DNA from: an uncultured archaeon
GTDB lineage: Archaea > Asgardarchaeota > Lokiarchaeia > Sigyniarchaeales > SOKP01
Length of the DNA stretch: 29,581 bases
Assembly (NCBI GenBank): GCA_964583985.1
Contig: CAZOYD010000045.1
Location: 1-29,581 of the forward strand
Direction: 5' to 3'
The notes beneath the pieces were generated by a model. It saw nothing but the letters and a program-made list of their open reading frames with translations. It did not search any database and was not told the origin of the DNA. Positions within the stretch are counted from its first letter, which is position 1. Each line of letters opens with the position of its first letter. Positions 1,405 through 24,768 of the stretch are shown in pieces. The position numbers and the translations under genes are program-made.

Positions 1405-1407
1405 TAT

Positions 1408-2304: not shown

Positions 2305-2312
2305 TGAAAAAA

Positions 2313-2906
2313 ATGATATATGATTATGAAAATAAGATATTACAAATAAAAATTGTTTATTATGGTCCAGCTATGTCTGGGAAAACGACATCTATTAAAA
2401 AGTTATTTTCACATTTTAACAGACAAAATGATTTAGAATCGATTGATAACTCAGTTGGTAGAACGTTATTTTTTGATTTTGGAGTCTTAAACTTTCGAGG
2501 TGCGGAATGGGGATTAAAATTTTTGATATATTCAGCTACAGGACAAGATTTCTATGCTAGCACTCGACCAGCAACACTTAATGGCGTTGATGGTATAATA
2601 TTTATCGTTGATTCTCATACAAGTTGTCTAAGACATAACCTAAGATCATGGAAGGAATTAAATACGATGCTTGGTTCTGAGTTTTTCAATATTCCTGTGG
2701 TAATATGTATGAATAAAGATGACATTAATAATGATACTAAGATGAGTGAAATAGAGTTTAAAGATCATATAGATATTAATACTCTTAAAAATGTATACGT
2801 TCAAAAAACTGCAGCTATTAGAGGATATGGAATAATAGAAGCATTTAATCGAATGATTAAATTTATTTTTCCTCAGTTAACCTTAAATATGAACATGACT
2901 AATTAA
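2313..2906 (+). CDS. MglA-like small GTPase
   Basis: IKIVYYGPAMSGKTT (G1), GRTLFFDF (switch I with Arg), ATGQ (G3), GVDGIIFIVDS, NKDD (G4), TAA (G5). ATG 2313 fits MglA N-terminal length better than 2295. Confidence 0.9.
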   Translation: MIYDYENKILQIKIVYYGPAMSGKTTSIKKLFSHFNRQNDLESIDNSVGRTLFFDFGVLNFRGAEWGLKFLIYSATGQDFYASTRPATLNGVDGIIFIVDSHTSCLRHNLRSWKELNTMLGSEFFNIPVVICMNKDDINNDTKMSEIEFKDHIDINTLKNVYVQKTAAIRGYGIIEAFNRMIKFIFPQLTLNMNMTN

Positions 2907-8343: not shown

Positions 8344-9558
8344 TTGAGTGTAATGATGATCGATTATTTTGATGAATTATTAAAACAACCTTCATTATTC
8401 AAGGATGAGAGTAAGCTTGATATCAATTTTGTACCAACAAAATTACTCCATAGAGAAAAAGAGTTATATCTTTTATCCCAACTTTTCTTAGTTCTAATAA
8501 CAAACCCAAATTCAGCATCAAGAAAAATTTTAATAACAGGAAAAACAGGAGTGGGAAAAACTGCGACGGTGAAATTCTTTGGAAAACTGATTGTAGACGC
8601 CGCAGTTAAAAGACAAGCTTTTATCCAACATATTCATATAAATTGTCGTAAAGAAAGAACTAGTTATAAGGTCCTAATAAAAATCATGACAACAATAAAC
8701 CCTAAGTTTCCAAAAAGGGGATACTCACCTCAAGAATTATTGGAGATAATATTGGAATATCTTAACAATTATGAATTACATTTACTAATTGTTTTAGATG
8801 AACTCAGTTATTTAATTAATGATGGAGGAGATCTAATTTATTCTCTGACAAGATTAAACGATGATTCCATAAATTTAAAACAAAGAGTATCAATAATTGG
8901 GATTGTTAGAGATATCAGCTGTTTAAGCAAATTAGATGCTAGTACTATGAGTACTCTTCAAAGAAATATAATTGATTTTAAGAATTACTCTAAGGAAGAA
9001 GTATTTGACATATTAAAATACAGATCGCAAATTAGTCTGATAAATAATGCAATCCCCGATGATTTAATGAACTCTATTACAGAATTAGTCCATATTAAAG
9101 GTGATATTAGGTATGGTTTAAATTTAATATGGCGAGCTTGTAAGATTGCTGAGAGAAAACATTTGCGACAGATTGATGCCGAATGTATACGTTTGGGTAA
9201 TCAAGATCTAATTCCATTTTCTGCTCAAGATATTTTGACTTCTTTAAATGAACAAAAATTGATCTTTCTTCTTTCAATAACTCGAGGATTAAAGCAAAGT
9301 GGCAAAACTCAAATTTCTATTGCAGAATGCATTAGTATCTATAAAATGATTTGTGAAAACGTGGAAATTAAATGTCGGTCATATTCTCAATTGTGGAATT
9401 ATCTTCAAGACTTCAAACGAGACAATTTTATTTCAGTTCTAATCCAAAGTGAATCATTTAAAGGTAGAAAAGGATTAATTGAAATAACAGAATTCTCATT
9501 ATTCAAACTTGAAACGGAATTAATTAGAATTTTAAAATCTAAGGGGTTTTTTGTATGA
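8344..9558 (+). CDS. cdc6: Cdc6/Orc1 replication initiator (AAA+ with winged helix)
   Basis: FVPTKLLHRE, Walker A GKTGVGKT, HINC, Walker B LIVLDE, GDIR sensor II. True start may be ATG 8353 or 8356. Confidence 0.93.
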   Translation: MSVMMIDYFDELLKQPSLFKDESKLDINFVPTKLLHREKELYLLSQLFLVLITNPNSASRKILITGKTGVGKTATVKFFGKLIVDAAVKRQAFIQHIHINCRKERTSYKVLIKIMTTINPKFPKRGYSPQELLEIILEYLNNYELHLLIVLDELSYLINDGGDLIYSLTRLNDDSINLKQRVSIIGIVRDISCLSKLDASTMSTLQRNIIDFKNYSKEEVFDILKYRSQISLINNAIPDDLMNSITELVHIKGDIRYGLNLIWRACKIAERKHLRQIDAECIRLGNQDLIPFSAQDILTSLNEQKLIFLLSITRGLKQSGKTQISIAECISIYKMICENVEIKCRSYSQLWNYLQDFKRDNFISVLIQSESFKGRKGLIEITEFSLFKLETELIRILKSKGFFV

Positions 9559-9839
9559 TAATTGATCAAAATAATAATATTGAAGATATATTAGGTTCTC
9601 GGGCGAAAGTTAGGATTTTGAAAACATTAGCTGTAAATAATGAACTTTCTATAAGTCAAATAATTAAAAATACCAGATTAAACCATTCGAGTGTAATAAC
9701 TCATTTGAATCATTTAGAATTACTTGACTTAGTACAAGAGAAAAATTTTGGACGCATTAAGATTTTCAGATATAAGAATGAAAACTTAAAAGCAAAGAGT
9801 TTAAAGAAATTTATTGAGATTTGGGAAGGAGATTATTGA
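9555..9839 (+). CDS. ArsR-like winged-helix protein, translationally coupled to cdc6
   Basis: ILGSRAKVRILKTL...LSISQII...HLNHLELLDLVQEKNFGRIKIF; ATGA overlap with the cdc6 stop. Confidence 0.8.
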   Translation: MIIDQNNNIEDILGSRAKVRILKTLAVNNELSISQIIKNTRLNHSSVITHLNHLELLDLVQEKNFGRIKIFRYKNENLKAKSLKKFIEIWEGDY

Positions 9840-9843: not shown

Positions 9844-10506
9844 ATGATTTTAGATTTGAAAATTCTTAATACTTGCTTTATAATGATTATTCTTTTATAT
9901 TATACATATTATGATTTTAAATTAAGGAGAATTTCAAATAGATTTTTTATAATTTGCATGTTTATTAGTGTTCTATTTAATTTTCTTGATTTAATCTATA
10001 ATTTAAATTTTTCAGTTGGAAATTTAGTGGGAAAGCTTTTTTTTGTTTTACTTTCTCTCGTAATTTCAGTTTATTTATTTTCAATTAGAATTTTAGGAGG
10101 GGCTGATGGTAAACTAATAATCATCCTCTTCTTTTCTGTACCAATCTTTAACTTTTTTCTTACTTTTGCGATATATTTTTTCTCTTTTTTTACTTTTATT
10201 TATATTGGATTAATTTTGGTGAAATTTATGATTAACGGTTGCATAAAGTACCGATTTTCATTTGATATTTATTTTAATACGACCTTTTCCATATCAACTT
10301 TAAAAAAAAAGTTCATCAAATCGTACTATATTTTCCAAGACTGGTCAAAATTATGTGATATTAAAGAAGAGAAATATCAATTATGCAACGGGGGATTATT
10401 TTTTAATGAAAAAACGTCAAAACTTCAGATTTTGGTTCAATATAGACCCCCTCTGACGTTAATTATTTCACTGAGTTATATCTTATCATTTTTGATGATT
10501 AGATAG
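9844..10506 (+). CDS. A24-family prepilin/pre-archaellin peptidase (PibD/FlaK/TadV-like)
   Basis: Polytopic membrane protein with YTYYDFKLRRISN (first Asp) and LGGADGK (GxGD-type second Asp). ATG 9844 preferred. Confidence 0.88.
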   Translation: MILDLKILNTCFIMIILLYYTYYDFKLRRISNRFFIICMFISVLFNFLDLIYNLNFSVGNLVGKLFFVLLSLVISVYLFSIRILGGADGKLIIILFFSVPIFNFFLTFAIYFFSFFTFIYIGLILVKFMINGCIKYRFSFDIYFNTTFSISTLKKKFIKSYYIFQDWSKLCDIKEEKYQLCNGGLFFNEKTSKLQILVQYRPPLTLIISLSYILSFLMIR

Positions 10507-10607
10507 ACAATATTTGAAATGTTTGGAATTTGCATTCTCAATAAAATTTTAAATGTGATAATTTTTATTAATTTATCTAAATAAATTGATTTTTGTGAAA
10601 AGTAAGA

Positions 10608-10985
10608 ATGGAAATTGAAAAGACTAGAGAAACAACATGGAAAATACGTTTAAAGAGGAATGACGAGATAATTGAATTAACATCAGTTGAAATAAGCGGT
10701 GAGGTTAGAAATATTAAATTAGCGCTTAGAAAAGAAAAAGAATTAATTAGAGTTGAAATGGGTAAAGGAGAATTTTTCAATTTTCTTTCTTTAATTTCTG
10801 CTTTTAAAGATGTAATTATTGGCGAAGATATAGATTATATACAAGATCAACTGACTGATGTTGAGATTTATGATGATCATAAAAAAATTACAACAGAAAA
10901 AGACAACTATAATGAAATCGTGAAGAATGATTATGACGATAATGAATCCGATGATTTAAATCCAGAAGAATGGGATCCTTGGTAA
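10608..10985 (+). CDS. Hypothetical protein with beta-rich core and acidic tail ending EEWDPW
   Basis: 125 aa; four predicted strands plus a helix, followed by a D/E-rich tail. Confidence 0.7.
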   Translation: MEIEKTRETTWKIRLKRNDEIIELTSVEISGEVRNIKLALRKEKELIRVEMGKGEFFNFLSLISAFKDVIIGEDIDYIQDQLTDVEIYDDHKKITTEKDNYNEIVKNDYDDNESDDLNPEEWDPW

Positions 10986-10989
10986 ATAA

Positions 10990-11478
10990 TTAAACCACTT
11001 TTTCAATCTTGAATCGGCAAGAGTCTAATTCCGGTTTTTCAAGTAGACAATCACCCTCAGTTACATTGACTCTGTATAAAGCATATTCTCCAAAACCTGC
11101 TAAAATTCCTGTTATATAATAACAAATATATTTGGATTTATTTTCTAGTTCGCTCGAAACATTATGATATAGATCGATAATGATTATCGTATCGGATATT
11201 TCTTTCGGTACAAATCGTCCCCATCCATGATTACTTATTATATTACAGAATTGGGTAACTAAATCATTTAATGATTTAGATTTTAAATTCTCGTCCCAAT
11301 CTTGTATCAATGCCCAGCCCGCTTTTTTGCCTAACCATACTAGTAGAGATTTCACACCTTCTCCATAGATTGATGAAAATACATCTATGATTTGTGGTGG
11401 GAAAAAGACAAATCTTTCATTAAATAATTGATAAGTCCCTTTTTCGTATTTTAATCCTTTTAATTTCAAATTTCTCAT
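10990..11478 (-). CDS. V4R-domain (Bet3/TRAPP-related fold) protein
   Basis: ERFVFFP, LGKKAG, HGWG, CYYITGILAG, E-x-x-C...CRF: the V4R motif set with C/E/C/C metal ligands. Confidence 0.85.
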   Translation of the reverse strand: MRNLKLKGLKYEKGTYQLFNERFVFFPPQIIDVFSSIYGEGVKSLLVWLGKKAGWALIQDWDENLKSKSLNDLVTQFCNIISNHGWGRFVPKEISDTIIIIDLYHNVSSELENKSKYICYYITGILAGFGEYALYRVNVTEGDCLLEKPELDSCRFKIEKVV

Positions 11479-11662
11479 AATAAAATACTACCTTCTTTTT
11501 TATAAAATTTTTACCATTACCCTCTTTAAAAAAAGATAATGATAAATAAATTGAAATATTTTGCAAATTTTTTTGGTTCCCAAATTATTCAAAAAGTGGA
11601 ATTAAAACGTACATATATGATTTTTTACGACTTTAAATATCCATCTCACTAAAATTAATGTC

Positions 11663-11953
11663 ATGTTTGATATAAATTATTTATTTTTTGAATTATTGTT
11701 TTTTATGATTTTTTTTATAATAATTTTTATAATCGCTTCATTTTCAGCTGATCAGTTAATCATATTTGCTTGTATTATTTTATTTTTAATTTTATTAGCG
11801 CCATATCTTGTTCTAATAAATAAATTCAATATTTTAAGGATTGGGAATAATAATTTCTATTATAACCTCTTATCTTTTTTTTCTCCATTAATAAATATCG
11901 TTATAGGGATCTTTTTATTTATTGATATAATTTATGTTCACTTTTTTGGCTAA
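11663..11953 (+). CDS. Small membrane protein (about 3 TM)
   Basis: 96 aa, strongly hydrophobic; fills the gap and ends 2 nt from the convergent gene. Confidence 0.6.
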   Translation: MFDINYLFFELLFFMIFFIIIFIIASFSADQLIIFACIILFLILLAPYLVLINKFNILRIGNNNFYYNLLSFFSPLINIVIGIFLFIDIIYVHFFG

Positions 11954-11955
11954 TC

Positions 11956-13482
11956 TTATACAAAATAGCTGATATTAAGAAAGGATATCATAAATATAAG
12001 AATAAATAAAATGCATGTGAAAATAATAAGAAAATAAATTTTATGCTGGTTTACAATTTTTAGGAAGAAAAATGAAGAAATCCCGACACATAAGATTAGG
12101 AAAATAAAGATTAACAAATAATTTACTATAAAATTACCATTTTGATCAATAAAAATTTGAAAAACACTTTCAATATCAACACGATTTAAAATTATGTAAA
12201 TAGAAGGAATTAAACCCCCGATGATGCCTAATATAAATGGCATTAAGAATAAATAGAGAAAAGCTTTAATCTTTTCACTTTTTATTATAACATCTATCTT
12301 TTTTTCGAGTTTTTGGTGATTATTAAGAACCGTTATGATGTCCATAATTTTACTTGATGACGTTAGAGAATCTTGTTGAAGAATTTTTTTTAATACCTCT
12401 AAAATTATTGAATATCGAAACGAATTTATTTGAGTTTTTAATTTTTCAATCATCTCATTAAAGGAATAAGAAAAATTAACCAAATTTGATGATTGATCTT
12501 GTAGATCGGAACATAAGAATTTAAGATGCGTCCTTTGTCGAGAAAAAGCTTTTATATACGCAACTTCAGGAGAAATATTTTTTTGCAAGTTCAGAGAAAA
12601 TATTTTTAAAAAGTCTATAAATTCATTAAATCTTAATTTTTCACGATTAGATAATTCAGATATTAATCCAATTAGAAATATATCTGACCTAACGAATTTA
12701 TTATTCAGATAATTTAAGATTAAAAAATAAATTGGAATAAATATTAATGATAACACAACATTAATGGTTTGAAATAAAATTAGGAAGCATATTCCTAAAG
12801 GAAAAAAGATTCCAATAAAGAAAAATATACTCAGTCTTGATTCCAATTGTTTTATAAACACTTTGAAACTGTCTTCTAATGAACCATCTTCAATTTGATC
12901 AAATTTGTTTTCAGGTATAAAATCACATAATAACAATTCTTTTATATAATTATCAAAATCTTCTGAAAATGTTATAAGATTTTCTAAATATTTTTCGGGA
13001 TTGCTTCCCTCTTGAATCTGTTTAACGGAATGAATAAACATTTTTGATATGGGCATTTCAGAAGTCAACACAAGTTTAATAAATGTGATTACTCTATCAG
13101 AGTCTGTTGAAAGGGATTTTTCGATGAGTGAATAATAAATTTTGATGAGATGAATGATTGCGTTAATTTTCATATCTTCCTTTTTTATTTCTTTATAAGC
13201 TTTTAAGTTAAAGAAATAAGCGATGTATACGGATATAATAAAAGTCACCAATAAAATCATAAAATTATCATAAGGAATAAAAGCTAATGAAATCCCCGTC
13301 GTACTCATAATTGATATGATTAAAATTATGAGTGTTGCTTTATTTATGTCTTCTTCTTCGATTTGATATATCTTCTTATAAATCTTCTTAATTCTCAGAT
13401 CTAGTTCTTTGAATTTTATTCCAGGAATTTTATAGTTATGAAATTTCCTGCAAAACTTAAGGTAATTACAGTTAAGATTCAT
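11956..13482 (-). CDS. T2SS-F / TadB-TadC / ArlJ-like membrane platform protein
   Basis: Two repeats of TM hairpin plus cytoplasmic helical domain (QIQEGSNPEKYL; LQKNISPEVAY), downstream of a secretion ATPase in the same operon. Confidence 0.75.
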   Translation of the reverse strand: MNLNCNYLKFCRKFHNYKIPGIKFKELDLRIKKIYKKIYQIEEEDINKATLIILIISIMSTTGISLAFIPYDNFMILLVTFIISVYIAYFFNLKAYKEIKKEDMKINAIIHLIKIYYSLIEKSLSTDSDRVITFIKLVLTSEMPISKMFIHSVKQIQEGSNPEKYLENLITFSEDFDNYIKELLLCDFIPENKFDQIEDGSLEDSFKVFIKQLESRLSIFFFIGIFFPLGICFLILFQTINVVLSLIFIPIYFLILNYLNNKFVRSDIFLIGLISELSNREKLRFNEFIDFLKIFSLNLQKNISPEVAYIKAFSRQRTHLKFLCSDLQDQSSNLVNFSYSFNEMIEKLKTQINSFRYSIILEVLKKILQQDSLTSSSKIMDIITVLNNHQKLEKKIDVIIKSEKIKAFLYLFLMPFILGIIGGLIPSIYIILNRVDIESVFQIFIDQNGNFIVNYLLIFIFLILCVGISSFFFLKIVNQHKIYFLIIFTCILFILIFMISFLNISYFV

Positions 13483-13499
13483 TTTTCTTCTTAAGACTT

Positions 13500-13904
13500 T
13501 TAACTCAATTTTATTCTTATATAATTGGACTCGAAAAATACATTTAAGATATATTCCATAGGGGTAAGATTATGATAGAAAGCTGTATGAAAAAGAGTTC
13601 CATATTTTTTTGAATTCGAATACGCAATATTATTAATTAAGTAATTATATTTTACTTCGTATCCAGAAACTGTAATATTTACTTCCTTTGGAAACAAGAG
13701 TTCCTCTTCATAGATATCTTCAGGATTTGATATAATATGTGTTATTGCTTGGTCAATTTCTTCAATAAATTTTTCTATATCTTGATTTTCTTCATCATAA
13801 TAATGAAGTAAGGTTCCAAAAAAGGGTTGAATAATTGAAAGAAATCCAATCAGAGTTAACAGGCCAAAACCAATTAATAATGATTTTTCAACCATATTTG
13901 TCAT
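13500..13904 (-). CDS. Type IV pilin-like protein (minor pilin candidate)
   Basis: N-terminus TNMVEKSLLIGFGLL aligns with the window's Flp pilin (GNLVEYALLLGFAL), followed by an amphipathic helix and beta head. Lies between the ATPase and platform genes. Confidence 0.65.
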   Translation of the reverse strand: MTNMVEKSLLIGFGLLTLIGFLSIIQPFFGTLLHYYDEENQDIEKFIEEIDQAITHIISNPEDIYEEELLFPKEVNITVSGYEVKYNYLINNIAYSNSKKYGTLFHTAFYHNLTPMEYILNVFFESNYIRIKLS

Positions 13905-13913
13905 GACATATTT

Positions 13914-16139
13914 TTACATGGAACAATTTAAATTCCGTGTATTTTTCCAATTATTCCATAAATCTTCTAATTGAGATGGTTTTTTAAACGAAAAATAAGA
14001 AATTGCGTCAAATAACTGGACTAAAGCCATATTTGATATTTTATTATTGGATTTGAGATAATTGAATATATCTTCATATATTTTAATGTAAAAATGATAC
14101 CTTTCTCTATTAAGGTCCTCAAATCTTTGTATATTCAGAACTGTTAATGTTTCATAAGCACTAATTTCCATTTCCCACCTTTCATATTTTGGATTATAAG
14201 TAAATATAGAATCGACAGGTTCTTCTTGTAATAATTTCTTATTTATTTCAGAAACTGAAACAATTCTTCTTTGATTATGATGTTTTTTCATTAAAATAAT
14301 CAGACCTAAATCATTTAAACAACTTCGGTCAATACCAAAATGATATAATAGACGATTTAAAAGGGAGTTGGTATCATTTGAATGAATGGTCTGAAATCCC
14401 CTCAAACCTGCAGATAAACAATGAAAAAGTGCTTTTGCTTCATCTGAGGTTAAAATTTCTCCTAAATATATAATATCGGGTGTTCTATGGAGTAATTTCT
14501 TAATTTGATTATGTTTTGAATATCTAACACTATTAGAATCTTCTAAAGAATCTACTTGGAATTTTAATTGATGTTTATGATAAATACTTTGATCCAATGA
14601 TTCAACAACATTTTCAATATAAATTTTTCTGAATTCTTTTGGAGTAATTAAGTCTAAAGCGTTGATTAAAGTTGTTTTTCCTGTGTCAGTTTCACCAGTA
14701 ACAGTAATATTTATTCTCCTTAAGATGTTGAAATATAAAAATGCTGCTATTTCCACGCTTAGAGTATCATTTTTTAGTAGATCTTGGATTGTCATTAAAT
14801 CTTTATTAAGTTTTCTAATATCCAATGCGAAATTGTTCAATTGAATTGGCGAAACATCCATTGCGAATCTACAATAGAAAAATTTATTTTTAATTACAAA
14901 TTTAATGCTCGGATTAGAGTAATCTAGACGTTTTCCACTATAAACTCTTAAAAAAGTCTTTAACCGTTCTGTTTCTCCCTTGCTAAGTTTAATGTGGGTT
15001 CTACAACGTCCAAATTTTTGATGATTTAGATAAATTGTTTCTTCTGGTGAATCTAGGAATATTTCTTCAACATAATCGTCTATAAGTAATGGAAATAATT
15101 TAAACAGATTAATCCTTACAATCGTTGCCAACAATGCAAATTTTTCAGCTTCTTCTTTTGAAAACCTGTATTTCTTATTTATGTAATTTAAGGCCTGATT
15201 TTTATATAATTCAATTAATTCTTCAAAAGACAAGATTCTATCTATTTTAATAAGTTCAAAATTCTTTCCTATATCTCTTGTTATTTTTTCAATATATACC
15301 TTATTCAAATTGTTTGAAAAATTAAAGTTTACGCTATAAAAGGATTCGATTTCATTATGGACGTCATAAATTTCAACTTGGAAAATTTTTTCTTCCCCTA
15401 TAAGGTAATCCTCTTTTTTTATTATATTTCTATTGATTTCGATTTCTCCAATTAAATTAGATTCTTTTAAATATTGATTTCTGAAAAATAGTTGTTTATA
15501 AAAGTTTGTTCTAGAGTTTAAATCCTTGCAAATAGATTGATCTTTCTGAAATTCAATAATAATTTTAAAATTATTCAAAATTTTTATAAGATTTAAAAGA
15601 AGGGATTGAAGATCATTCAAACATTTTGTACAGTATGAATCGTTGTCTTCCTTTTGAATAAAATTTAATTCAAATTTTTTAAGGTTTATATATAGTGCTA
15701 TAGGATCATCAAACACCTTTTCTGCGATATAAAGATGTTGATTTAAATTTTGAAATTGTTTACATTCAAAATCATTATAGACACATTTTTGTTCTTTTGT
15801 TGATATGATTTTATTCCAAATTCTTTTGATTTTTTTTTGGTTATTATAAAAAGAGATAAATTGGTTATATATTTGAGGTTGAATATTATAAGCCGGATCT
15901 CCCAATATCAGAGATTTAAGCCTACTATTCTTATTATCTTTAAGAGAGGTTAATACACAAAAAATGCAATCCTCTTGAAATTTATTTTTTTGTGCAAAAA
16001 AATCGCAATCTTTACAGTTAATAACTAAGAATTTTTCTTTTATTCCATTTAAGGTTTCTTTTTCTTGAATAAATGAGGATTTGTCTATATTAATTTCCAT
16101 AAAGTATATGTTTGAATATAACAATAAAAAGCACCCCAT
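13914..16139 (-). CDS. CpaF/TadA/VirB11-family pilus assembly ATPase with Cys-rich N-terminal extension
   Basis: PLLIDDYVEEI, LDIRK, Walker A GETDTGKTT, Asp box IENVVE, Walker B RTPDIIYLGEI, His box GFQTIHS. Start may be ATG 16100. Confidence 0.92.
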   Translation of the reverse strand: MGCFLLLYSNIYFMEINIDKSSFIQEKETLNGIKEKFLVINCKDCDFFAQKNKFQEDCIFCVLTSLKDNKNSRLKSLILGDPAYNIQPQIYNQFISFYNNQKKIKRIWNKIISTKEQKCVYNDFECKQFQNLNQHLYIAEKVFDDPIALYINLKKFELNFIQKEDNDSYCTKCLNDLQSLLLNLIKILNNFKIIIEFQKDQSICKDLNSRTNFYKQLFFRNQYLKESNLIGEIEINRNIIKKEDYLIGEEKIFQVEIYDVHNEIESFYSVNFNFSNNLNKVYIEKITRDIGKNFELIKIDRILSFEELIELYKNQALNYINKKYRFSKEEAEKFALLATIVRINLFKLFPLLIDDYVEEIFLDSPEETIYLNHQKFGRCRTHIKLSKGETERLKTFLRVYSGKRLDYSNPSIKFVIKNKFFYCRFAMDVSPIQLNNFALDIRKLNKDLMTIQDLLKNDTLSVEIAAFLYFNILRRINITVTGETDTGKTTLINALDLITPKEFRKIYIENVVESLDQSIYHKHQLKFQVDSLEDSNSVRYSKHNQIKKLLHRTPDIIYLGEILTSDEAKALFHCLSAGLRGFQTIHSNDTNSLLNRLLYHFGIDRSCLNDLGLIILMKKHHNQRRIVSVSEINKKLLQEEPVDSIFTYNPKYERWEMEISAYETLTVLNIQRFEDLNRERYHFYIKIYEDIFNYLKSNNKISNMALVQLFDAISYFSFKKPSQLEDLWNNWKNTRNLNCSM

Positions 16140-16227
16140 TTATGGTTGTTTCATAAATATATGAGGGAGAATACGAAACTTTTTTTATCTTGAATAATTT
16201 AAAATTCCAACATTCAAGTGATTTGTT

Positions 16228-17247
16228 ATGGGACATCGTAAAAAACACGCACCTAGACATGGATCATTAGCGTATCTTCCACGAAAAAGAGCAGCAGCGA
16301 TTAAAGGGAGAGTAAGAAACTGGAAAGATTCAGGAGATGAAATAAATTTTCTTGGATTTGCTGGATTTAAAGCTGGTATGACACACCTAACCTATATTGA
16401 AGATCAAAAAAACAGTCCATATTATGGAAAGGAATTGATGAAACCTGTGACAATATTAGAAGTACCTCCATTAATCTTAATAGGGATTAGAATCTATAAT
16501 GAAGATGAATATGGAAATTATATCGTTGGAGAAATATTATCATCTAATTTTAACCAATATTTAGGGCGTAAGCTTAATGTTCCTAATCCTGAAATGTATG
16601 ATTCTCAAAAATTAAAAGAAAAATTACTAAATAAATTAGACAATACGAGTGAGATTAGAGGTATTTTTCAGACTCAACCTTATCTTTCATCTATACCTCG
16701 GAAAAAACCGGATATTATCGAAATTAAACTTAATTCAATACGAGATCCTAAAAGTGAATTTAATTATGCATTTGAGAAACTTGGTGAGCAACTTAGAGCT
16801 CGAGATATTTTAATTGAAGGTGAATTAATAGATATTATTGCTATAACGAAAGGAAAAGGTTTTCAGGGTCCTGTTAAAAGGTATGGAATTAAGATCTTGC
16901 CTCGTAAAAATAGTAAGATTAGAAGAGCGGTAGCTTGCATTGGTCCTTGGCATCCCGCAAGAGTTTTATATACCGTACCACGTCCCGGTCAATTAGGATT
17001 TCACCAAAGAACAGAATATCATAAAAGAATTATGCTAATAGGAGAGAACGAAGAAGAAATTAATCCCAAAGGCGGATTGATTAATTATGGTAAAATTAAA
17101 GGTGATTACCTTATCATTTTAGGGACAGTCCCTGGTCCGAAGAAAAGATTAATTAGAATTAGAAAAACTATACGTCAAATTAAATCATTTGAAGCTCAAT
17201 CTCCAGAGATAACATTTATCAGTAGAGAGAGTCAACAAGGAAAATAA
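16228..17247 (+). CDS. rpl3: 50S ribosomal protein L3
   Basis: PRHGSLAYLPRKRA, GFKAGMTH, TKGKGFQGPVKR, ACIGPWHP, GQLGFHQRTE. Confidence 0.98.
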   Translation: MGHRKKHAPRHGSLAYLPRKRAAAIKGRVRNWKDSGDEINFLGFAGFKAGMTHLTYIEDQKNSPYYGKELMKPVTILEVPPLILIGIRIYNEDEYGNYIVGEILSSNFNQYLGRKLNVPNPEMYDSQKLKEKLLNKLDNTSEIRGIFQTQPYLSSIPRKKPDIIEIKLNSIRDPKSEFNYAFEKLGEQLRARDILIEGELIDIIAITKGKGFQGPVKRYGIKILPRKNSKIRRAVACIGPWHPARVLYTVPRPGQLGFHQRTEYHKRIMLIGENEEEINPKGGLINYGKIKGDYLIILGTVPGPKKRLIRIRKTIRQIKSFEAQSPEITFISRESQQGK

Positions 17248-17272
17248 AACATAAGCAGAACAGGTGTAATTT

Positions 17273-18061
17273 TTGGATAAGATCAATGTCTATAATTTAG
17301 AAGGGCAAGTAAAAACATCATTAGATTTACCCTTAATTTTTAATATCGCTCCTCGAATGGATTTAATTCGATTTGCGTGTGAAGTTTCTACAAGTAAAAA
17401 CAAACAAGTACAAGGAAGAGATAAGAGAGCAGGTTTAAGAAATACCGCAAAAGGATGGGGTACAGGACACGGAATGTCAAGAGCACCAAGAATACAAGGA
17501 TCTGGATTTAGCACGGCTCGAAATGTAGGAAGAGTTCCATATGCGAAAGGAGGCCGTACAACTCATCCGATTAAAGCAGAGAAAAAATTAGAAAAAAAAA
17601 TTAATAATAAAACTAAAAAATTATCATTAATTTCTGCCATATCAGCCTCAGGCAACCAATATTGGGTTAAACAACGAGGACATTTTGTAGAAGAAATTCC
17701 TGAAATCCCATTAGTTATTGATGATAAACTGCAAACTGTAAAAAAAACAAGGGAGATCTATGAAATTCTATGTGATTTAGGATTAAGTAAAGATTTGCTT
17801 AAAATTAAGAATACAAAAAAAATTAGACCAGGTAAAGGAAAAAGAAGAGGAAGAAAATATAAAATTAGGAAGGGCCCCTTGCTTGTAATAAAGGATGATT
17901 TTGGAATTGTTAAAGCCTCAAAAAATCTTTTAGGATTGGACATTTCAAAAGTAGAGGATTTATCAGTTGAACTTTTAGCACCAGGTGCAATGCCGGGACG
18001 TTTTATAATTTGGACTCAATCTGCTTTTAGTGAATTAAATAAATATGAGGATTTGATATAA
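17273..18061 (+). CDS. rpl4: 50S ribosomal protein L4
   Basis: WGTGHGMSRAPR, IRPGKGKRRGR, LAPGAMPGRFIIWT; TTG start after AGGTG. Confidence 0.97.
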   Translation: MDKINVYNLEGQVKTSLDLPLIFNIAPRMDLIRFACEVSTSKNKQVQGRDKRAGLRNTAKGWGTGHGMSRAPRIQGSGFSTARNVGRVPYAKGGRTTHPIKAEKKLEKKINNKTKKLSLISAISASGNQYWVKQRGHFVEEIPEIPLVIDDKLQTVKKTREIYEILCDLGLSKDLLKIKNTKKIRPGKGKRRGRKYKIRKGPLLVIKDDFGIVKASKNLLGLDISKVEDLSVELLAPGAMPGRFIIWTQSAFSELNKYEDLI

Positions 18062-18062
18062 T

Positions 18063-18326
18063 ATGGAAAGATTTTATAGTGTGATTAAAAAGCCGCTAAT
18101 AACAGAAAAAACATTTGATTTAATTGAAAGAGAAAATAAATTAGTATTTCTGGTTGAAAGAACATCAAATAAAAGTGAAATAAAAAGAGCTGTTGAAAAA
18201 ATACATAATGTTAAAGTTATACGGGTAAATACACTAATTACGCCTAAAGGAGAGAAAAAAGCCTTTATTAAATTACATCCTGATAATTCTGCACAAGATA
18301 TTGCCATTGATCTTGGCATTTTCTAA
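18063..18326 (+). CDS. rpl23: 50S ribosomal protein L23
   Basis: PLITEK...ENKLVFLV...VNTLITPKGEKKAFIKL. Confidence 0.97.
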   Translation: MERFYSVIKKPLITEKTFDLIERENKLVFLVERTSNKSEIKRAVEKIHNVKVIRVNTLITPKGEKKAFIKLHPDNSAQDIAIDLGIF

Positions 18327-19438
18327 TTCCACGAATTTTTTAATGAAGCATAATTAAATTGGGAAAAAACATCCATATCCAGTACTTTAAGATCTTTAAG
18401 TTGACTTATTTTTTCAATTTTGTTTAGTTTATCATACTCTTCTTCTTCTATAATAAGAATAATAATCTTATATTTTGAATAATATTTGTTTAATATTTTT
18501 GAAATATGATTAATGTCTGCTTCTTTAGTGATAAGGAATATTATTTTTTGTTCTATAAAAAATAGACATGGATTAATTTTTTGAAAACTAATATTATAAT
18601 TATTTAGACTACATTCGATTTCATCTGTAATCTCCCTTAGAGTTAATTTTATTTCAGTTTGTATACCGCAATCAGATTGTATTTTAGAGATTTGATTATT
18701 ATTTTTTAATGGTTTTCTCCAAATTATTGAAAAAACATCATTAAAATTTAGCCTAATGTTCTTTATTAATTCCCATTCGAAAAAGTTATTAATGTCTTCT
18801 TCGATAAAGGTTTTATCTTCTTGTAATTTTTCACTTACACAAATATATAAGGGGGTAGTTATAATTTTATTATGTTTATCAAATTGAACATTTAGCAGAA
18901 AGTAACCACCTAAATTTGAATCAATGAGATATTTTATAAAATTAGGAATTGAAATCACACTACTCTCATTTTTAAAGCGCAATTCATATAATTTAAAAAC
19001 TTTTGTCTCATTTTGGTTTTTTATCAGCAAGGAATTTAATGGTCTTATTAATTTGATATGTGAATTTAGATCATTTGTTAGTAATTCAAAAAAAATATTC
19101 TGAAGATTTTCATTTTTATAGAAACTCTTAATTTTACCCGTTTTATTCAAATACTCATAAACTATGTGAAAAGATCTAATAATGTTGTCTTTATTATCAT
19201 TATAATAGTTTATTACAATCAAATCCTCTCTCTTTTCCATAATATTAATTTGTACTGAAAAATAATTGATAACTCTTTCTTTTAACATCTGAATTAAATT
19301 TGGTAAAATATCTTGAAAATCTGAAACAAGGGCAATATTAAAAGCATTTAATTTATGATCTTTATTTAGACTTTTATAATAAATTAAAAAATCATTAACT
19401 AAAAATGAAGAAAGCTTAAATTTACTTTTTTTGGGCAT
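18323..19438 (-). CDS. Hypothetical 371-aa soluble protein
   Basis: Long ORF with mixed alpha/beta character and no recognisable motif; 4-nt tail-to-tail overlap with rpl23. Confidence 0.65.
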   Translation of the reverse strand: MPKKSKFKLSSFLVNDFLIYYKSLNKDHKLNAFNIALVSDFQDILPNLIQMLKERVINYFSVQINIMEKREDLIVINYYNDNKDNIIRSFHIVYEYLNKTGKIKSFYKNENLQNIFFELLTNDLNSHIKLIRPLNSLLIKNQNETKVFKLYELRFKNESSVISIPNFIKYLIDSNLGGYFLLNVQFDKHNKIITTPLYICVSEKLQEDKTFIEEDINNFFEWELIKNIRLNFNDVFSIIWRKPLKNNNQISKIQSDCGIQTEIKLTLREITDEIECSLNNYNISFQKINPCLFFIEQKIIFLITKEADINHISKILNKYYSKYKIIILIIEEEEYDKLNKIEKISQLKDLKVLDMDVFSQFNYASLKNSWN

Positions 19439-19581
19439 TTCATTAGATTTTTTAGATAAAAATATAAAAACAACTGCTTTTTTTATTTTGAAGAAGAAAA
19501 ATAATTTTATAAGTAGGAATGAAAGAATTAAAATTTGTCAAAATTATTGTTTAAATATTAATAAATTTAAGGAGATTATAT

Positions 19582-19764
19582 TTGAGTAAATTTGATAGAT
19601 ATAAAAAAGCAAATGAACTGTATATTTATCCTCATAAGCACTGTGAAAAATGTGGAGAAATGATAGAAGAAGCGAACAATTATTGTTCTGAATGCTATAA
19701 AAAGATTCAACAAAAAAAAGAAAAGAAGAGACGTCTAAAATTTAAAAAAAAAGAAAAGCAATAA
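19582..19764 (+). CDS. DUF2116-like Zn-ribbon protein
   Basis: PHKHCEKCG...YCSEC followed by a basic tail; AAGGAG SD before the TTG. Confidence 0.72.
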   Translation: MSKFDRYKKANELYIYPHKHCEKCGEMIEEANNYCSECYKKIQQKKEKKRRLKFKKKEKQ

Positions 19765-19770
19765 TATAAA

Positions 19771-21480
19771 TCATTTATCTAGAAAATTTAATCTCTGTTG
19801 TAACCATTCTTTATCTAAGAGAGAAATAAATGATCCGAGTCTTGGACCTGAATTCTTGCCAAGAATAACTAAATAGAATGCCTCAAATAATTCTTTTGGA
19901 TTAATTTGCAGACCATGTTTGGCAATTGTATAAATTTTATTTTGGATCTTTTCAGCATTCATATTTTCCTCTTTTAGAATAAAATCCCTAAATAATTTAA
20001 GACCTGAAATTTGATTCTTATTGAGTTTATCTATAAATGAATCGTCAATCTCAACTGGAATTGAAAAGATACCGATTTTATTCATATATGCCTTTTTTTT
20101 CTTTTCATTATCGATTTTTTTTAAGATGGATTTGACTTCTGTTATCCAATTTGTAGTTTTTAAAAGTAATTTAGTGAATTCTTCAAATGTTATCTCTGTT
20201 GCCTCTTTATCCACCCAAGAAAGCGCTTTTTTAAAGAGATTTTCTTTACTTAGAAGATTTTGTATTTGGGATAAGAATATCATTTTATTAAATGGAATTC
20301 TTATAGGTATAGTCTTGGGAACATTTTCAATCTTTGTTAAGGGATATAGATACTTAAAGAAATCTTTTTCTTGCTTAGATTCTGCTTCTTCGACGTTGTA
20401 ATATATATCCTCCATCTTTTCATAATAATTATAATATTGTGAGAGTTCTTCAATTCTCAATGAAATGTGTTTCATTGGATTTGTCCGTAATATGATCATT
20501 CTGTAGATTTCTGGGTCTGCTAATTCTTGAAATCTCTTCGGAGTAAAAACAATCCCTTTAGAAGTTTTCATATCTTGATCGCCTAATCTCAACCATTCAT
20601 AAGATAATTTAACGGGTCCTCGATATTTATATATTCGTTGGCATATCTCTAATCCTGTATCATAAGATCCTCCCTTGACACAGTGATCTTTTCCTGCAGG
20701 TTCACAGGAAGTATTAAATAAAGCCCATTTAGCGGGCCAATCTACACGCCAATTTAACTTCAGCCGACCACTGAATATGGGAATTTTTCCTTGATAACCA
20801 CATGCTGGACAAATATAGGACACACTATGATCATCTTTAAAATAAGAAATCACTCTGTTTGGTTTTATGGATCCATCCTTATCTTTCCATAGAATTCTAT
20901 CACATTTTTCACATAAGACCATTACCGGCATCCAAGATTTTTGCATTTCTACAAAGTTCTCTTTTTTTTCCTCATCTAAAGTCGGAAAGATATATTTTTT
21001 TAAAATTTTTTTTATCTCGTCTGTATTTTCCAAGGCGATGTTAATTTGTTCTTGCATGCCCTTTTCTTTATAAAGAGTAAACGCCCATATAATCTCATTT
21101 TTAATACCAAAACCTTTGAATGTAGAAATAAGTTCATTTCCGAAGTGTCTTGCATAACTCTCACATCCACAATCATTAAATGGACATGGTATTAGTGCAA
21201 ATGGTTTTCCTATATGTTCTTGTTGGAACTTAATATCAATATAATCAGGAAATCTTTTTGCAGCATCAAAATCATCCAAAAAGAGATAAAAATTTACATT
21301 TTTTCCTCTTTCATTAAAAATTCGTTTTAAAGCATCACAAATAATAATTTCTCTTAAAATCCCAATATGAATGTGCCCTGATGGCGTTTTTCCCGTAGAT
21401 AAAGTCACTTTCGGAGGTTTCCTACTCATAATTTGTTCTACTGTATCTTCAAGCCAATGAACTGAAAATTCTCTACTCAT
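19771..21480 (-). CDS. lysS: Class I lysyl-tRNA synthetase
   Basis: HW, TPSGHIHIG (HIGH), KLNWRVDWPAKW, EPAGKDH, MKTSKG (KMSKS-like), GPRLG. Confidence 0.97.
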   Translation of the reverse strand: MSREFSVHWLEDTVEQIMSRKPPKVTLSTGKTPSGHIHIGILREIIICDALKRIFNERGKNVNFYLFLDDFDAAKRFPDYIDIKFQQEHIGKPFALIPCPFNDCGCESYARHFGNELISTFKGFGIKNEIIWAFTLYKEKGMQEQINIALENTDEIKKILKKYIFPTLDEEKKENFVEMQKSWMPVMVLCEKCDRILWKDKDGSIKPNRVISYFKDDHSVSYICPACGYQGKIPIFSGRLKLNWRVDWPAKWALFNTSCEPAGKDHCVKGGSYDTGLEICQRIYKYRGPVKLSYEWLRLGDQDMKTSKGIVFTPKRFQELADPEIYRMIILRTNPMKHISLRIEELSQYYNYYEKMEDIYYNVEEAESKQEKDFFKYLYPLTKIENVPKTIPIRIPFNKMIFLSQIQNLLSKENLFKKALSWVDKEATEITFEEFTKLLLKTTNWITEVKSILKKIDNEKKKKAYMNKIGIFSIPVEIDDSFIDKLNKNQISGLKLFRDFILKEENMNAEKIQNKIYTIAKHGLQINPKELFEAFYLVILGKNSGPRLGSFISLLDKEWLQQRLNFLDK

Positions 21481-21568
21481 ACATCATCCCTTATTAATCC
21501 GTTTTCCTAATTGAATAAATGATAAAAATTATTTATCATTTTGCATTTTAAAATGTAGTGGATAAATT

Positions 21569-23377
21569 ATGAGAATTGCTGTTCTTAATAAGGATCGTTG
21601 CAAACCCGATAAATGTAGTCCATTTGGAGAAAAACCTTGTATTAAATATTGTCCTAAGGTAAGAACTGGAGATAAAACAATAACATTAAATTCGGATGGT
21701 AAAAGTGTATTTATTACCGAAAATCTATGCACTGGATGTGGAATATGTATTAAAAAGTGTCCTTTCAATGCAATTAGTATTGTTAATTTACCAGATCCAT
21801 TAGAAAGCCAAATAACTTATCGTTATGGTCCTGATCAATTTTCTCTTTTCAGAATGGCCATACCAAAAAAAGGGAAAGTGCTAGGATTAATTGGTCAAAA
21901 TGGGATTGGAAAAAGTACTATGCTTAATATCTTATCTGGTGAATTGAAAATGAATTTAGGGCGTTTTGGAAATAATGAACCCGAACCAGATGAAATAATC
22001 AATTTTTTTAGAGGATCTGAGCTTCAGCAATATTTTATTGATATGAAATCCCAAAAAAATAAGATTATTCTGAAACCACAAAATATTACTTCAATTCCAA
22101 AATTTATTTCAGGAAAAGTATTTGATTTGTTAGAAAAAAATGATGTTGGAGGAGAACTAGAACAAATTATTGATAAATTGAATTTAAGAGAAATTTTAGA
22201 TCGAGAAGTTTCTGTTTTATCGGGAGGCGAATTACAACGAGTTACAATAGCAGCAGCTTATCTTAAGGATGGGGATGTATACTTAATAGATGAACCAAGC
22301 TCTTATCTTGATGTTAGTGAAAGGATTAATATGGCCAAATTAATAAGATCACTTACTGATAAGGGAAAGACCGTTATTGTCGTAGAACATGATTTAGCCA
22401 TTTTAGATTATTTAAGTGATTATATATCTTTATTTTATGGTATTCCCGGCGTTTATGGAATAATTTCACATCCTCAAGGAGTAAGAGTAGGTATTAATAT
22501 ATATCTTAATGGATACATAAAGGATGAAAATGTGAGGATTAGAGAGAATCCTATTCAATTTCATGAACGCCCACCAATAAATTCTATTTTTGATTCTGGG
22601 AGTATAATTTTTACGTATAAGGATTTAAAAACTCATTTAGGAAATTTTGAATTAGAAGTTTCAGGGAGTGAAATTCATGCTGGTGAAATAATAGGGATTT
22701 TGGGACCAAATGGAATTGGCAAGTCAACGTTTATAAATCTGATTGCAAGTGAGGCTAAATCATTTTACAAGGCTCAGGATTATGAAGAAAAAAAACTAAA
22801 AGTGTCAATAAAACCGCAATATATTAAAATAGAGGATTTAAAAATGGTTTCAGAATTGATAATGAAAATAAAACTCTCAGCTCATCTAAGTCAATCGTAT
22901 AAAAAACGTCTCTTAAATAGTCTAAAACTAGAAGATATTAAAAATCGAAAAGTTTCTGAATTAAGTGGTGGTGAATTACAAAGAGTTGCTATAGCAAAAT
23001 GCATTACTACAGAAGCAGATATATATTTGCTGGATGAACCATCAGCATTTTTAGATGTTGAAATGAGATTAAGTGTTGCTCAGCTTCTAAGAAAATCTAT
23101 TGAAGAGTTGAAAAAAGCTGCTTTTGTTGTTGAACATGATATTGTTACCCAAGATTTTATAGCTGATTCTATTTTAGTTTTTGAAGGATCTCCAGGGTTA
23201 AAAGGAAAAGCTTTGTCTCCACAAAATTTAAGAGAAGGATTTAATCAGTTTTTGAAAATGATGGAAATTACATTCAGAAGGGATCCTATTAGCAAACGTC
23301 CACGGGTAAATAAACTTCATAGCAATAAAGATAATTATCAAAAGAGTATCAATGAATATTATTATATTCCTGAATGA
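21569..23377 (+). CDS. rli: Ribosome recycling ATPase ABCE1/RLI
   Basis: MRIAV...two Fe-S Cys clusters, two ABC domains (GQNGIGKST, GPNGIGKST, LSGGELQR twice), FRRDP...PRVNK. Confidence 0.97.
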   Translation: MRIAVLNKDRCKPDKCSPFGEKPCIKYCPKVRTGDKTITLNSDGKSVFITENLCTGCGICIKKCPFNAISIVNLPDPLESQITYRYGPDQFSLFRMAIPKKGKVLGLIGQNGIGKSTMLNILSGELKMNLGRFGNNEPEPDEIINFFRGSELQQYFIDMKSQKNKIILKPQNITSIPKFISGKVFDLLEKNDVGGELEQIIDKLNLREILDREVSVLSGGELQRVTIAAAYLKDGDVYLIDEPSSYLDVSERINMAKLIRSLTDKGKTVIVVEHDLAILDYLSDYISLFYGIPGVYGIISHPQGVRVGINIYLNGYIKDENVRIRENPIQFHERPPINSIFDSGSIIFTYKDLKTHLGNFELEVSGSEIHAGEIIGILGPNGIGKSTFINLIASEAKSFYKAQDYEEKKLKVSIKPQYIKIEDLKMVSELIMKIKLSAHLSQSYKKRLLNSLKLEDIKNRKVSELSGGELQRVAIAKCITTEADIYLLDEPSAFLDVEMRLSVAQLLRKSIEELKKAAFVVEHDIVTQDFIADSILVFEGSPGLKGKALSPQNLREGFNQFLKMMEITFRRDPISKRPRVNKLHSNKDNYQKSINEYYYIPE

Positions 23378-23621
23378 ATTTTTTTTATTTACTCCATCAT
23401 TTCTACTGCAAATCTTAAAATATTTTTTTGATAGATTCAGGAACTCTAGTTATGAATTAATAAAATAACTTAAATATAATGCAAATCGATATTAATAGGG
23501 GCCGTTAAACTATAAACATATATACACTTAATTTTAATAAGTTAAACTATTTTGCAATGGAAATAATGCAGTATTTATTTTTTTATTATAAAAAAATATA
23601 AAAAAAAATTTTTTTACGGAA

Positions 23622-23876
23622 TTATTCAGTAACCTTCCAAAAAACTAGAGGTCTTCCTCGATTTCCATAATTTCGTGTAAATTTTTCTAATAATTTTCTT
23701 TTCTGTAATTTCAATAAATTATCATAGATTGTGGTCCTAGGAATACTTAAATGATTAACTAATTCTTTACGGGTTGTTGGACCTTTCTCATATAATAATT
23801 TTATTAAACTATTTTGTAATGGTGTTAAAATTTCATTCATTTCAATATTTTCTTCTATATAAATTTTGTTGGCCAT
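23622..23876 (-). CDS. Small winged-helix regulator (TrmB/ArsR-like HTH)
   Basis: GPTTRKELVNHLSIPRTTIYDNLLKL...RGRPLVFW. Confidence 0.8.
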   Translation of the reverse strand: MANKIYIEENIEMNEILTPLQNSLIKLLYEKGPTTRKELVNHLSIPRTTIYDNLLKLQKRKLLEKFTRNYGNRGRPLVFWKVTE

Positions 23877-23909
23877 AATTTATCCCTCCACAATATTCTT
23901 AATTTTAAA

Positions 23910-23931
23910 TTCGACAATTTTTCGACAATTT
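23910..23931. repeat. Perfect tandem 11-bp direct repeat (TTCGACAATTT)x2
   Basis: Seen directly at 23910-23920 and 23921-23931, between two divergent DNA-binding protein genes. Confidence 0.8.
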
Positions 23932-24084
23932 AAATCTAAATTCTTAAATAGATTTTATAATAGAATATAAACTCATAGAATATATAAAGATGCTTATTTA
24001 TGCATTATTATCATCAACAAGCATAAATTTATAAACGACAAAAAAAATTAATATCATAGTTTAGAGGAGAGAAATAGATCAAAA

Positions 24085-24453
24085 ATGACTGATACCGCAC
24101 GAACAACAGTAACTTTGAGCAAAATTAGTATGAATCAAGTTGAAGAGCTAGTAGGAGTATTCGGTAATACTCCGGCATCAGTAATTAGTAGAATTGTGGA
24201 ACATTTCTTTGATTATGGTAGATTTGATGATGTTTTAGAAAAATTAAGAGCAAAAAAAAGAAAATTATACCCTCCTGATGAGCAAGTTCTAAGAACTAAA
24301 ATCATAGACTTATTTAAAGGAGGAGATAAGATCCCTTTTGAAGATTTTATAAATTATTTGGAAGTAGATAAAAATTTTGCTTTAAAAAATCTACATGAAT
24401 GGTCGAAAAAATTTGATATTAAAGTTGAAGAAAACTTAGTTATTAAACAATAA
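24085..24453 (+). CDS. Ribbon-helix-helix (CopG-like) protein with small C-terminal helical/wH domain
   Basis: ARTTVTLS...VEELVGVFGNTPASVISRIVEHF is an RHH pattern; GAGGAG upstream. Confidence 0.7.
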   Translation: MTDTARTTVTLSKISMNQVEELVGVFGNTPASVISRIVEHFFDYGRFDDVLEKLRAKKRKLYPPDEQVLRTKIIDLFKGGDKIPFEDFINYLEVDKNFALKNLHEWSKKFDIKVEENLVIKQ

Positions 24454-24561
24454 CAGTCAAAATCATTTCATATTTATGCATATTTTAATTCAATATCCAC
24501 TATAGTTAATAGTATCTTAAATCCTATTATCATAATTGCTTAAATTCAAGAATGACAAGAT

Positions 24562-24768
24562 TTAACCTCCAAAAATAGTGAAAAAATCATTAGATAATCC
24601 TAATGTCCAATTTAAGATAGAGGTAATTACACTTATAATTATAAAAAATACAAATAATGCAAATCCAAGGAGTAAAGCATATTCAACTAAATTACCTCCA
24701 TAATCATCCAAAGAAAATTCTAAGAATTTATTTTTTATTTTATTTAACAGATATTTGAGCTTTTTCAT
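24562..24768 (-). CDS. Flp/Fap-type (type IVc) prepilin
   Basis: 68 aa: basic amphipathic leader, DDYG|GNLVEYALLLG (G-1, E+5, Y+6), TM helix and short tail. Confidence 0.8.
   Translation of the reverse strand: MKKLKYLLNKIKNKFLEFSLDDYGGNLVEYALLLGFALFVFFIIISVITSILNWTLGLSNDFFTIFGG

Follow-up and report, generated by a model that had tools for sequence, protein, structure and literature searches.

A 29,581-nucleotide stretch of DNA from an uncultured archaeon of the Lokiarchaeia (contig CAZOYD010000045.1; the whole stretch is hereafter called the window) raises the question of whether five genes scattered along it encode a single machine and, if so, of which kind. The five encode an A24 prepilin peptidase, a platform protein, a 134-residue pilin-like protein, an assembly ATPase and a 68-residue Flp-like prepilin. 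An initial annotation had described them as a dispersed Tad/Flp-like pilus system of a probable Asgard archaeon. It placed all five open reading frames correctly, and the Asgard origin fits the labels Lokiarchaeota or Promethearchaeota on the sources of the best-matching homologues. The genes are indeed interleaved with core genes (L3, L4, L23, LysRS and ABCE1 lie between them), and Pfam scans of the window genes showed no mobility genes, as had also been stated. GC content is 27% overall and uniform at about 25-30% along the window.

The gene set is more than a chance assortment. Its members are parts of a single small machine resembling a type IV pilus, with a very small Flp-like subunit, and the machine belongs to an uncharacterised Flp-type system conserved across most Asgard archaea. 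All four components that define the core of the type IV filament superfamily (ATPase, platform, class III pilin and A24 peptidase) are present, and each core role is filled exactly once in this 100%-complete genome. The observations that carry this view are gene identities, catalytic motifs, homology, conservation and linkage. We estimate a probability of about 65% that the window encodes a complete, minimal type IV filament (T4F) machine that is archaeal, resident and of a kind spread across the Asgard archaea, with a functional thin filament as the favoured product. A functional filament is favoured because the phylum as a whole maintains, under selection, a full pathway for processing and assembly, every role has a single gene, and the sole A24 enzyme has one evident substrate.

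Prepilin, peptidase and a leaderless pilin-like protein

The Flp-like prepilin begins with MKKLKYLLNKIKNKFLEFSLDDYG and continues, after the predicted cleavage site DDYG/GNLVEY, with GNLVEYALLLGFALFVFF. A basic/acidic leader of 24 residues precedes a headless mature part of 44 residues that contains a 20-residue hydrophobic helix. The window protein thus combines a G/xxxxEY motif with a mature length below 60 residues, the combination that characterizes Tad pilins. The class III site and the hydrophobic helix are kept across the family, and cleavage at the site is predicted from sequence. In the family alignment every member has Glu+5 and nearly all have Gly (or Ala) at -1; at +6, some lineages have Ser, Thr or Glu in place of Tyr. 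The 68-residue frame is open in 29 of 40 relatives, and the family was found in 130 of 150 sampled Asgard genomes. Ratios of nonsynonymous to synonymous substitution rates (dN/dS) against congeners are 0.09-0.36; the gene is under purifying selection. Two pattern scans of the genome returned this open reading frame as the only convincing candidate for a class III signal.

Among 1.84 billion representatives, a profile built from 21 family members retrieved 132 proteins at E<=1e-3, almost all of them 45-100 residues long. Curated members of Pfam Flp_Fap account for 22 of the 117 matches that were scanned (best 4e-23), and no other family recurs. Alignment of the family by hhalign with the annotated Flp of a Roseinatronobacter Tad locus (83.6%, E 8e-6) takes in the leader and the G/xxxxEY site, and some sources label homologues 'Flp family type IVb pilin' or 'Flp pilus assembly pilin'. 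The best profile match, P0040 (73 residues), is named by NCBI as an Flp family type IVb pilin of a Minisyncoccales bacterium; its 4.8-kb contig may be a mis-binned Asgard contig. A box resembling TTTATAAA lies about 35-45 nt upstream of the Flp start codon, which is weak evidence in a genome of 27% GC, and a scan for bacterial-type promoters around the gene was uninformative.

The enzyme that would process this prepilin is readily recognized. It scores 31.2 bits against PF01478 (cut-off 26.5), and its catalytic motifs YDFKLRRISN and GGADGK (D34, D98) are conserved in homologues. They conform to the A24 family motifs D-x3-[RQ]-[RK]-[IV]-x-N and G-G-A-D-x-K, with both aspartates kept. It is the sole A24 match in the genome.

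The genes for the ATPase, the pilin-like protein and the platform are packed, in this order, as an operon with gaps of 9 and 17 nt. In Asgard families f1 and f2 orthologues of the pilin-like gene take the same position, and one adjoins the ATPase gene in f14. The pilin-like N-terminus, MTN[LM][LV]EKALL.GFG, matches that of mature Flp (GNLVEYALLIGFAL), and M1, E6 and P27 are invariant. Removal of the initiator methionine would therefore place Glu at +5 without any peptidase. An Flp query also matches the pilin-like orthologue in genome G023 at 5.8e-4. The AlphaFold2 (AF2) model, with a predicted local distance difference test score (pLDDT) of 89.8, consists of a 58-residue N-terminal helix followed by a seven-stranded beta-sheet, the general shape of a pilin. 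A wide search with this model in VIA-align returned the type IV pilins 8pfb_G, 6xxd_A and 8tum_e at Z 3.9-5.0, values within noise. A predicted complex of two mature Flp chains with the leaderless protein, run without control predictions, scored 0.00. Pilin-like proteins without a class III motif are known in archaeal system 2 (PMC13705601).

Assembly ATPase and platform protein

The ATPase matches Pfam T2SSE at 2.5e-16, and its Walker A, Asp box, Walker B and His box are intact and conserved. An N-terminal extension of about 330 residues carries conserved CxxC motifs; public gene calls start the gene at 16100 and give a 728-residue product. Elsewhere in the genome a single further gene exceeds the T2SSE cut-off; its product is a PIN-domain ATPase that has nothing to do with filaments. 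That gene (G000:C3:68648-72010, L002) encodes a 551-residue protein combining a PIN domain with a PilT-like ATPase. Weak T2SSE matches of 576-588 residues in families f3 and f4, where the PIN domain itself was not scanned for, resemble it.

The motifs are those of VirB11/PilB-class hexameric ATPases, and the label 'CpaF/VirB11-type' given in the initial annotation is too specific. Against the PDB, the best solved structure is Archaeoglobus afGspE (3.6e-29), followed by FlaI (8e-19), CpaF (1e-11), and PilT and VirB11 (both about 1e-5). Scores against NCBIfam models fall far below the cut-offs, at 87 bits for FlaI (cut-off 550) and 69 bits for the TadA family (cut-off 373). By bit score, separate clade and PDB ranking alike, the protein lies outside the TadA/CpaF family, and it falls short of the ArlI equivalog of the archaellum. 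Asgard ArlI-like ATPases reach 400-545 bits to NCBIfam FlaI and form a clade apart from the window-type enzyme. In an IQ-TREE phylogeny of 24 sequences, which include 13 Asgard ArlI-like and two CpaF proteins and are rooted by one long TrbB branch only, the Loki ATPases form a single fully supported clade on a long stem, apart from both. Reference sequences from Epd, Aap, Ups, system 2 and 4D are not among the 24, and for that reason the tree leaves the Loki clade unplaced. Nearly all of 234 matches to plasmid-borne bacterial ATPases were to CpaF.

The platform protein is far less conspicuous. Its 508 residues match no Pfam or NCBIfam model, sources call its family hypothetical and without a Pfam domain, and PF00482 has no match in this genome or in any of 24 sampled f1 genomes. 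Proteins of about 510 residues in families f9 and f15 do score above the PF00482 cut-off, at residues ~113-234, and hhalign aligned the Loki platform family with these T2SSF-bearing Asgard proteins over 483 columns (99.4%, E 6.7e-22). It is through this homology, with no direct Pfam match, that the window protein is recognized as the T2SSF platform of the filament superfamily. We interpret it, on sequence grounds, as a divergent platform protein homologous over its full length to T2SSF proteins. In its AF2 model (pLDDT 73), which consists of helices throughout, two cytoplasmic bundles lie between transmembrane helices. The platform profile found no match among PDB sequences, nor did hhalign with single bacterial TadB and TadC sequences.

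A platform encoded by two genes defines Tad and Epd-like systems and has been attributed to gene fission by Denise et al. (PMC6668835). The window holds a single platform gene, as do Lokiarchaeia (f1, f2) and f9/f15, and the two-gene form was found in families f5, f14, f21 and f23. There the operon order is ATPase, a gene for 261-303 residues, a gene for 233-284 residues, and Flp. The first half-size product corresponds to about positions 1-270 of the platform profiles and the second to about positions 280-505. The suggestion that the locus is informative for the origin of Tad is borne out by these sister families, in which the ATPase is accompanied by two half-size platform genes and an Flp-like gene. 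As to the proposed Tad/Flp-like character, the Flp-type pilin motif agrees with it and the single-gene platform, unlike that of Tad and Epd, does not. Because the ATPase forms its own clade and the window platform is unsplit, the system is not a bona fide Tad.

Linkage, distribution and neighbouring genes

The Loki-type ATPase occurs in 124 of the 150 sampled Asgard genomes, and it and the Flp family are linked in many arrangements, in line with the expectation that the components would co-occur. At least nine other Asgard lineages (f2, f5, f7, f9, f14, f17, f21, f23 and f1-g14) keep Flp close to the ATPase gene, at a distance of 0.1-3 kb; in those other than f2 the range is 0.1-2 kb. In an f2 genome (G029) the genes run contiguously as Cdc6-like, ArsR helix-turn-helix (HTH), A24, Flp, ATPase, pilin-like, platform and two V4R genes. 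Genera g2 and g9 of the same family have, on one strand, Flp, Cdc6-like, HTH, a short A24, ATPase, pilin-like and platform. In the genus of the window, and in f15 and f24, about 10 kb separate Flp from the ATPase. Since Flp lies close to the ATPase in the lineages just listed, this dispersal is a local rearrangement of a compact, ancient module. Such varied, conserved linkages across the phylum tie the distant Flp gene to the ATPase and platform and uphold the view that the five genes make up a single type IV filament system, resident and inherited vertically, whose subunit is Flp-like.

Within the genus, the ATPase, platform and peptidase genes occur in the same 15 of 23 genomes. Joint loss from the other eight was considered and rejected, the missing region being an assembly gap: the gene for ribosomal protein L3 is absent as well (5/8 'lacking' genomes tested), and in two such genomes (L071 G017:C5; L072 G014:C182) the contig ends inside L4 or LysRS with synteny identical up to the break. 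A recurrent assembly or binning gap in this genus thus mimics gene loss.

Other Asgard families (L075-L090; for example G080:C8:139154-142168 and G046:C23:23721-26774) carry an ArlI-like ATPase gene followed by two T2SSF genes of about 300 residues. No Flp-like open reading frame was found near these loci or near the f9 platform genes. A congener, G008, has a paralogous cluster (L032 5758-10731, G008:C15) made up of an MglA-like GTPase gene, a copy of the ATPase gene, an orf371 homologue and an Flp-like gene with GNLSEY, and a second platform copy about 8 kb beyond it. The window's own orf371 has no Pfam match and gave sub-threshold leads only in a protein atlas search. It may be an extra component of the system, since its G008 homologue sits between the ATPase and Flp-like genes.

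All minimal parts were said to lie in the window, and all five do; the statement left out a conserved TFB paralogue (Table 1). Homologues of this TFB (37-46% identity) stand directly beside the ATPase gene in four other Asgard families; at one locus (L096) the TFB and ATPase genes share an overlap of 20 nt, and at another (L097) TFB, ATPase and Flp follow each other on one strand. The paralogue is syntenic in f2 as well. We conclude that it is dedicated to the system.

The Cdc6-like and ArsR-type pair (8344-9839) may be regulators or merely reflect origin-proximal synteny. Four Cdc6/Orc1 paralogues occur in the genome, of which the window copy scores weakest; in f2 the paralogue lies between the Flp and ATPase genes on the same strand. 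Throughout f1 and f2 the order is Cdc6 paralogue, then the ArsR-type HTH gene, then the peptidase gene, and the pair stands ahead of the peptidase or ATPase gene in every case. A V4R gene adjoins the platform gene in G029 (two copies) and in G176.

The GTPase operon at the start of the window recurs near parts of the system. In G029 it stands beside the platform and V4R genes, and in G008 an MglA gene abuts the second ATPase copy. In f4, a family of the same order (L073 9962-12264, G032; L074 7450-10148, G026), an Flp-like gene lies 10-23 nt downstream of a Roadblock x2 - DENN-like - MglA operon on the same strand, and that operon is homologous to the one in the window.

Table 1. Window features belonging to, or neighbouring, the proposed filament system.
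Feature	Coordinates	Strand	Basis or remark
Roadblock x2 - DENN-like - MglA GTPase operon	374-2906	+	recurrent neighbour, association only
TFB (TFIIB) paralogue travelling with the system	4886-5827	+	Pfam TFIIB repeat; homologues adjoin the ATPase elsewhere
Divergent Cdc6/Orc1 paralogue	8344-9558	+	Pfam Cdc6_lid, Cdc6_C, AAA; syntenic neighbour, possible regulator
ArsR-type winged-helix regulator	9555-9839	+	Pfam HTH_5, 1.1e-6
Class III signal (prepilin) peptidase, A24, without methyltransferase domain	9814/9844-10506 (ATG at 9844)	+	PF01478
V4R-domain protein	10990-11478	-	NCBIfam MsvR C-terminal region, 1.5e-5; platform neighbour
Divergent, unsplit inner-membrane platform protein (TadB+TadC / ArlJ class)	11956-13482	-	hhalign to T2SSF-bearing Asgard proteins
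Leaderless pilin-like protein, 134 residues	13500-13904	-	conserved N-terminus, AF2 model
Type IV filament assembly ATPase, ~330-residue N-terminal extension	13914-16139	-	Pfam T2SSE; motifs
371-residue protein (orf371)	18323-19438	-	no Pfam match; between the ATPase and Flp genes
Flp-like prepilin, 68 residues	24562-24768	-	family alignment, profile search, dN/dS

Known systems, alternative readings and significance

With bacterial Tad/Flp (type IVc; Flp, TadV/CpaA, TadA/CpaF, TadB, TadC) the system shares a pilin that is short and headless, with an acidic end to its leader and the G/xxxxEY site, and an A24 peptidase without a methyltransferase domain. CpaF is nearest to its ATPase among bacterial ATPases, and in sister Asgard families the order ATPase, platform N-half and C-half is that of tadA-tadB-tadC. 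Unlike Tad, the window has a single 508-residue platform gene, an ATPase of a separate clade with a Cys-rich 330-residue N-terminal extension, an Flp below the Pfam threshold, and a leaderless pilin-like protein and TFB paralogue as members of the set. Secretin RcpA, TadZ, TadD and TadE/F/G were not found among the Pfam matches of the window genes, no genome-wide search having been aimed at them. The system would work like a minimal Tad/Epd-type pilus outside the bacterial Tad family.

Epd pili ('T4F system 1') of Methanococcus maripaludis, regarded as archaeal kin of Tad (PMC6668835, PMC13705601), resemble it by description in being archaeal and in having a headless major pilin and a dedicated class III peptidase. 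The claim that typical archaeal pilins are larger overlooks this headless Epd pilin (PMC13705601). Epd also resembles the Asgard sister families in its two platform genes; its loci contain numerous minor pilins and FlaH/MinD-like partners, none of which appeared in the window. The Loki platform, by contrast with that description of Epd, is unsplit, and of the two features that mark system 1, a headless major pilin and two adjacent platform genes, the window has the first only.

Archaeal 'T4F system 2', as described in PMC13705601, is alike in its extended ATPase N-terminus, single platform gene and pilin-like proteins without a class III motif; the afGspE match of the ATPase is a further likeness. 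Unlike the window Flp, system 2 pilins are larger and have heads, and no Flp-type motif is reported for them in the passages of that survey consulted. A likeness to subclade (subsystem) 4D of Pyrobaculum/Thermoproteus (Makarova, Koonin and Albers 2016, PMC4858521; arCOG05557, arCOG05558, arCOG05559) lies in a Cys-rich ATPase N-terminal domain, a membrane partner unrecognisable as TadC and a dedicated TFIIB in the operon; it rests on architecture and linkage, 4D being known by description. The linked Flp-like pilin, the leaderless pilin-like gene and the peptidase set the window apart from 4D.

In the complete minimal T4F machine that we favour, the 68-residue prepilin would insert into the membrane, and the single A24 aspartyl peptidase would cut its 24-residue leader between the two glycines, releasing a 44-residue headless, mostly helical subunit with Glu at +5. 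A hexameric ATPase docked on the 508-residue platform would extrude these subunits into a thin Flp/Epd-like filament. The leaderless 134-residue protein, having the same N-terminal helix and needing no cleavage, most likely primes, caps or base-anchors the filament, and the TFB paralogue, possibly with the ArsR/Cdc6-like pair, would control expression. Adhesion to syntrophic partners would be a purely conjectural function.

Several observations weigh against this reading. The window Flp lies below the Pfam Flp_Fap (PF04964) cut-off, without a match even at E<=10, and reaches no NCBIfam model; nine of 21 family members give weak Flp_Fap matches (best 0.023). Neither the pilin-like nor the platform model has a significant structural match in the PDB by Foldseek. 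Co-occurrence within the genus carries no weight, because the missing regions are assembly or binning gaps. Family f4 has an Flp-like gene, and Loki-type ATPase, platform and A24 peptidase were not detected there with the queries used. No RNA runs are listed among those containing the window DNA, which are salt-marsh metagenome runs only, and expression or protein evidence for the system is absent. Finally, the similar set of ATPase, membrane protein and TFIIB in subclade 4D is seen as possibly repurposed, a pilin-less and perhaps non-pilus remnant (PMC4858521, PMC13705601).

This last point underlies the main rival, a repurposed T4F-derived machine without an external pilus, which we regard as possible though unlikely. 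It would act as a short pseudopilus or piston embedded in the membrane (in protein secretion, DNA uptake, or membrane/protrusion remodelling) or have a transcription-linked role as proposed for the Thermoproteales 'subclade 4D'. The very long branch of the ATPase is in keeping with it, as are the 4D-like traits: the Cys-rich ATPase N-terminal domain, a membrane partner invisible to Pfam and a TFIIB paralogue in or near the operon (PMC4858521). So is the absence of any mention of pili on cultured Lokiarchaeia from the literature searched, which did not cover the strain descriptions themselves. What speaks against such repurposing is the complete pilin-processing pathway under purifying selection phylum-wide, with its intact class III site, dedicated peptidase and invariant Glu+5; moreover, the present system has a pilin gene linked to it, and 4D was described as lacking one.

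The remaining two alternatives fit the data poorly. It is improbable that the 68-residue open reading frame is a small membrane protein that merely resembles Flp through a charged leader and one hydrophobic helix, leaving the ATPase and platform to serve the 134-residue protein or pilins as yet unidentified. Its position below every curated family threshold, the ease with which short hydrophobic sequences produce profile matches, and its retention in f4 without a detectable machine would all agree with that idea. Yet the bacterial Flp match extends beyond the helix to the leader and cleavage site, the curated matches (22/117, E to 4e-23) come with no other recurring family, the ATPase linkage holds in at least nine lineages, and the genome's only A24 peptidase has no other class III candidate. 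That a bacterial Tad locus was recently acquired by horizontal transfer and then scattered is very improbable: the bacterial style of the pilin motif, the CpaF identity of nearly all plasmid-borne ATPase matches and automatic annotations calling homologues TadA/CpaF and Flp are outweighed by core-gene synteny conserved across the order, presence in most Asgard families, an ATPase nearer archaeal afGspE/FlaI than CpaF and placed neither inside nor beside the two CpaF sequences of a small tree rooted only by one long TrbB branch, uniform GC, and a window that showed neither mobility genes nor a secretin, TadZ or TadE/F/G.

Asgard surface filaments are barely characterised genetically. The latest survey finds Asgard T4F genes scattered and of ambiguous type, and treats the 4D set as a pilin-less remnant (PMC13705601); the literature searched contains no description of an Flp-like pilin in Asgard archaea. 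What is new here is the finding that the linked subunit of this nearly universal Asgard machine is encoded by a very small Flp-like gene that is easily overlooked. A 'pre-matured' pilin-like protein would in addition be an unusual solution for a priming or anchoring subunit. Very tentatively, and with the odds against it, the Asgard-wide module might be the closest living archaeal relative of bacterial Tad. It would have the same headless G/xxxxE pilin, unsplit (Lokiarchaeia) and fissioned TadB/TadC-like (four families) platforms within one orthologous system, and wiring to eukaryote-like regulators, namely a private TFB and an MglA-Roadblock-DENN GTPase switch, with the operon for the latter immediately upstream of the pilin gene in one family of the Loki order. 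Split and unsplit platforms in one orthologous system make the proposed archaeal origin of Tad by platform fission (PMC6668835) directly testable. The gene set is also a concrete candidate for experiments in cultured strains, where cell-cell contact is central to syntrophy and to models of eukaryogenesis.

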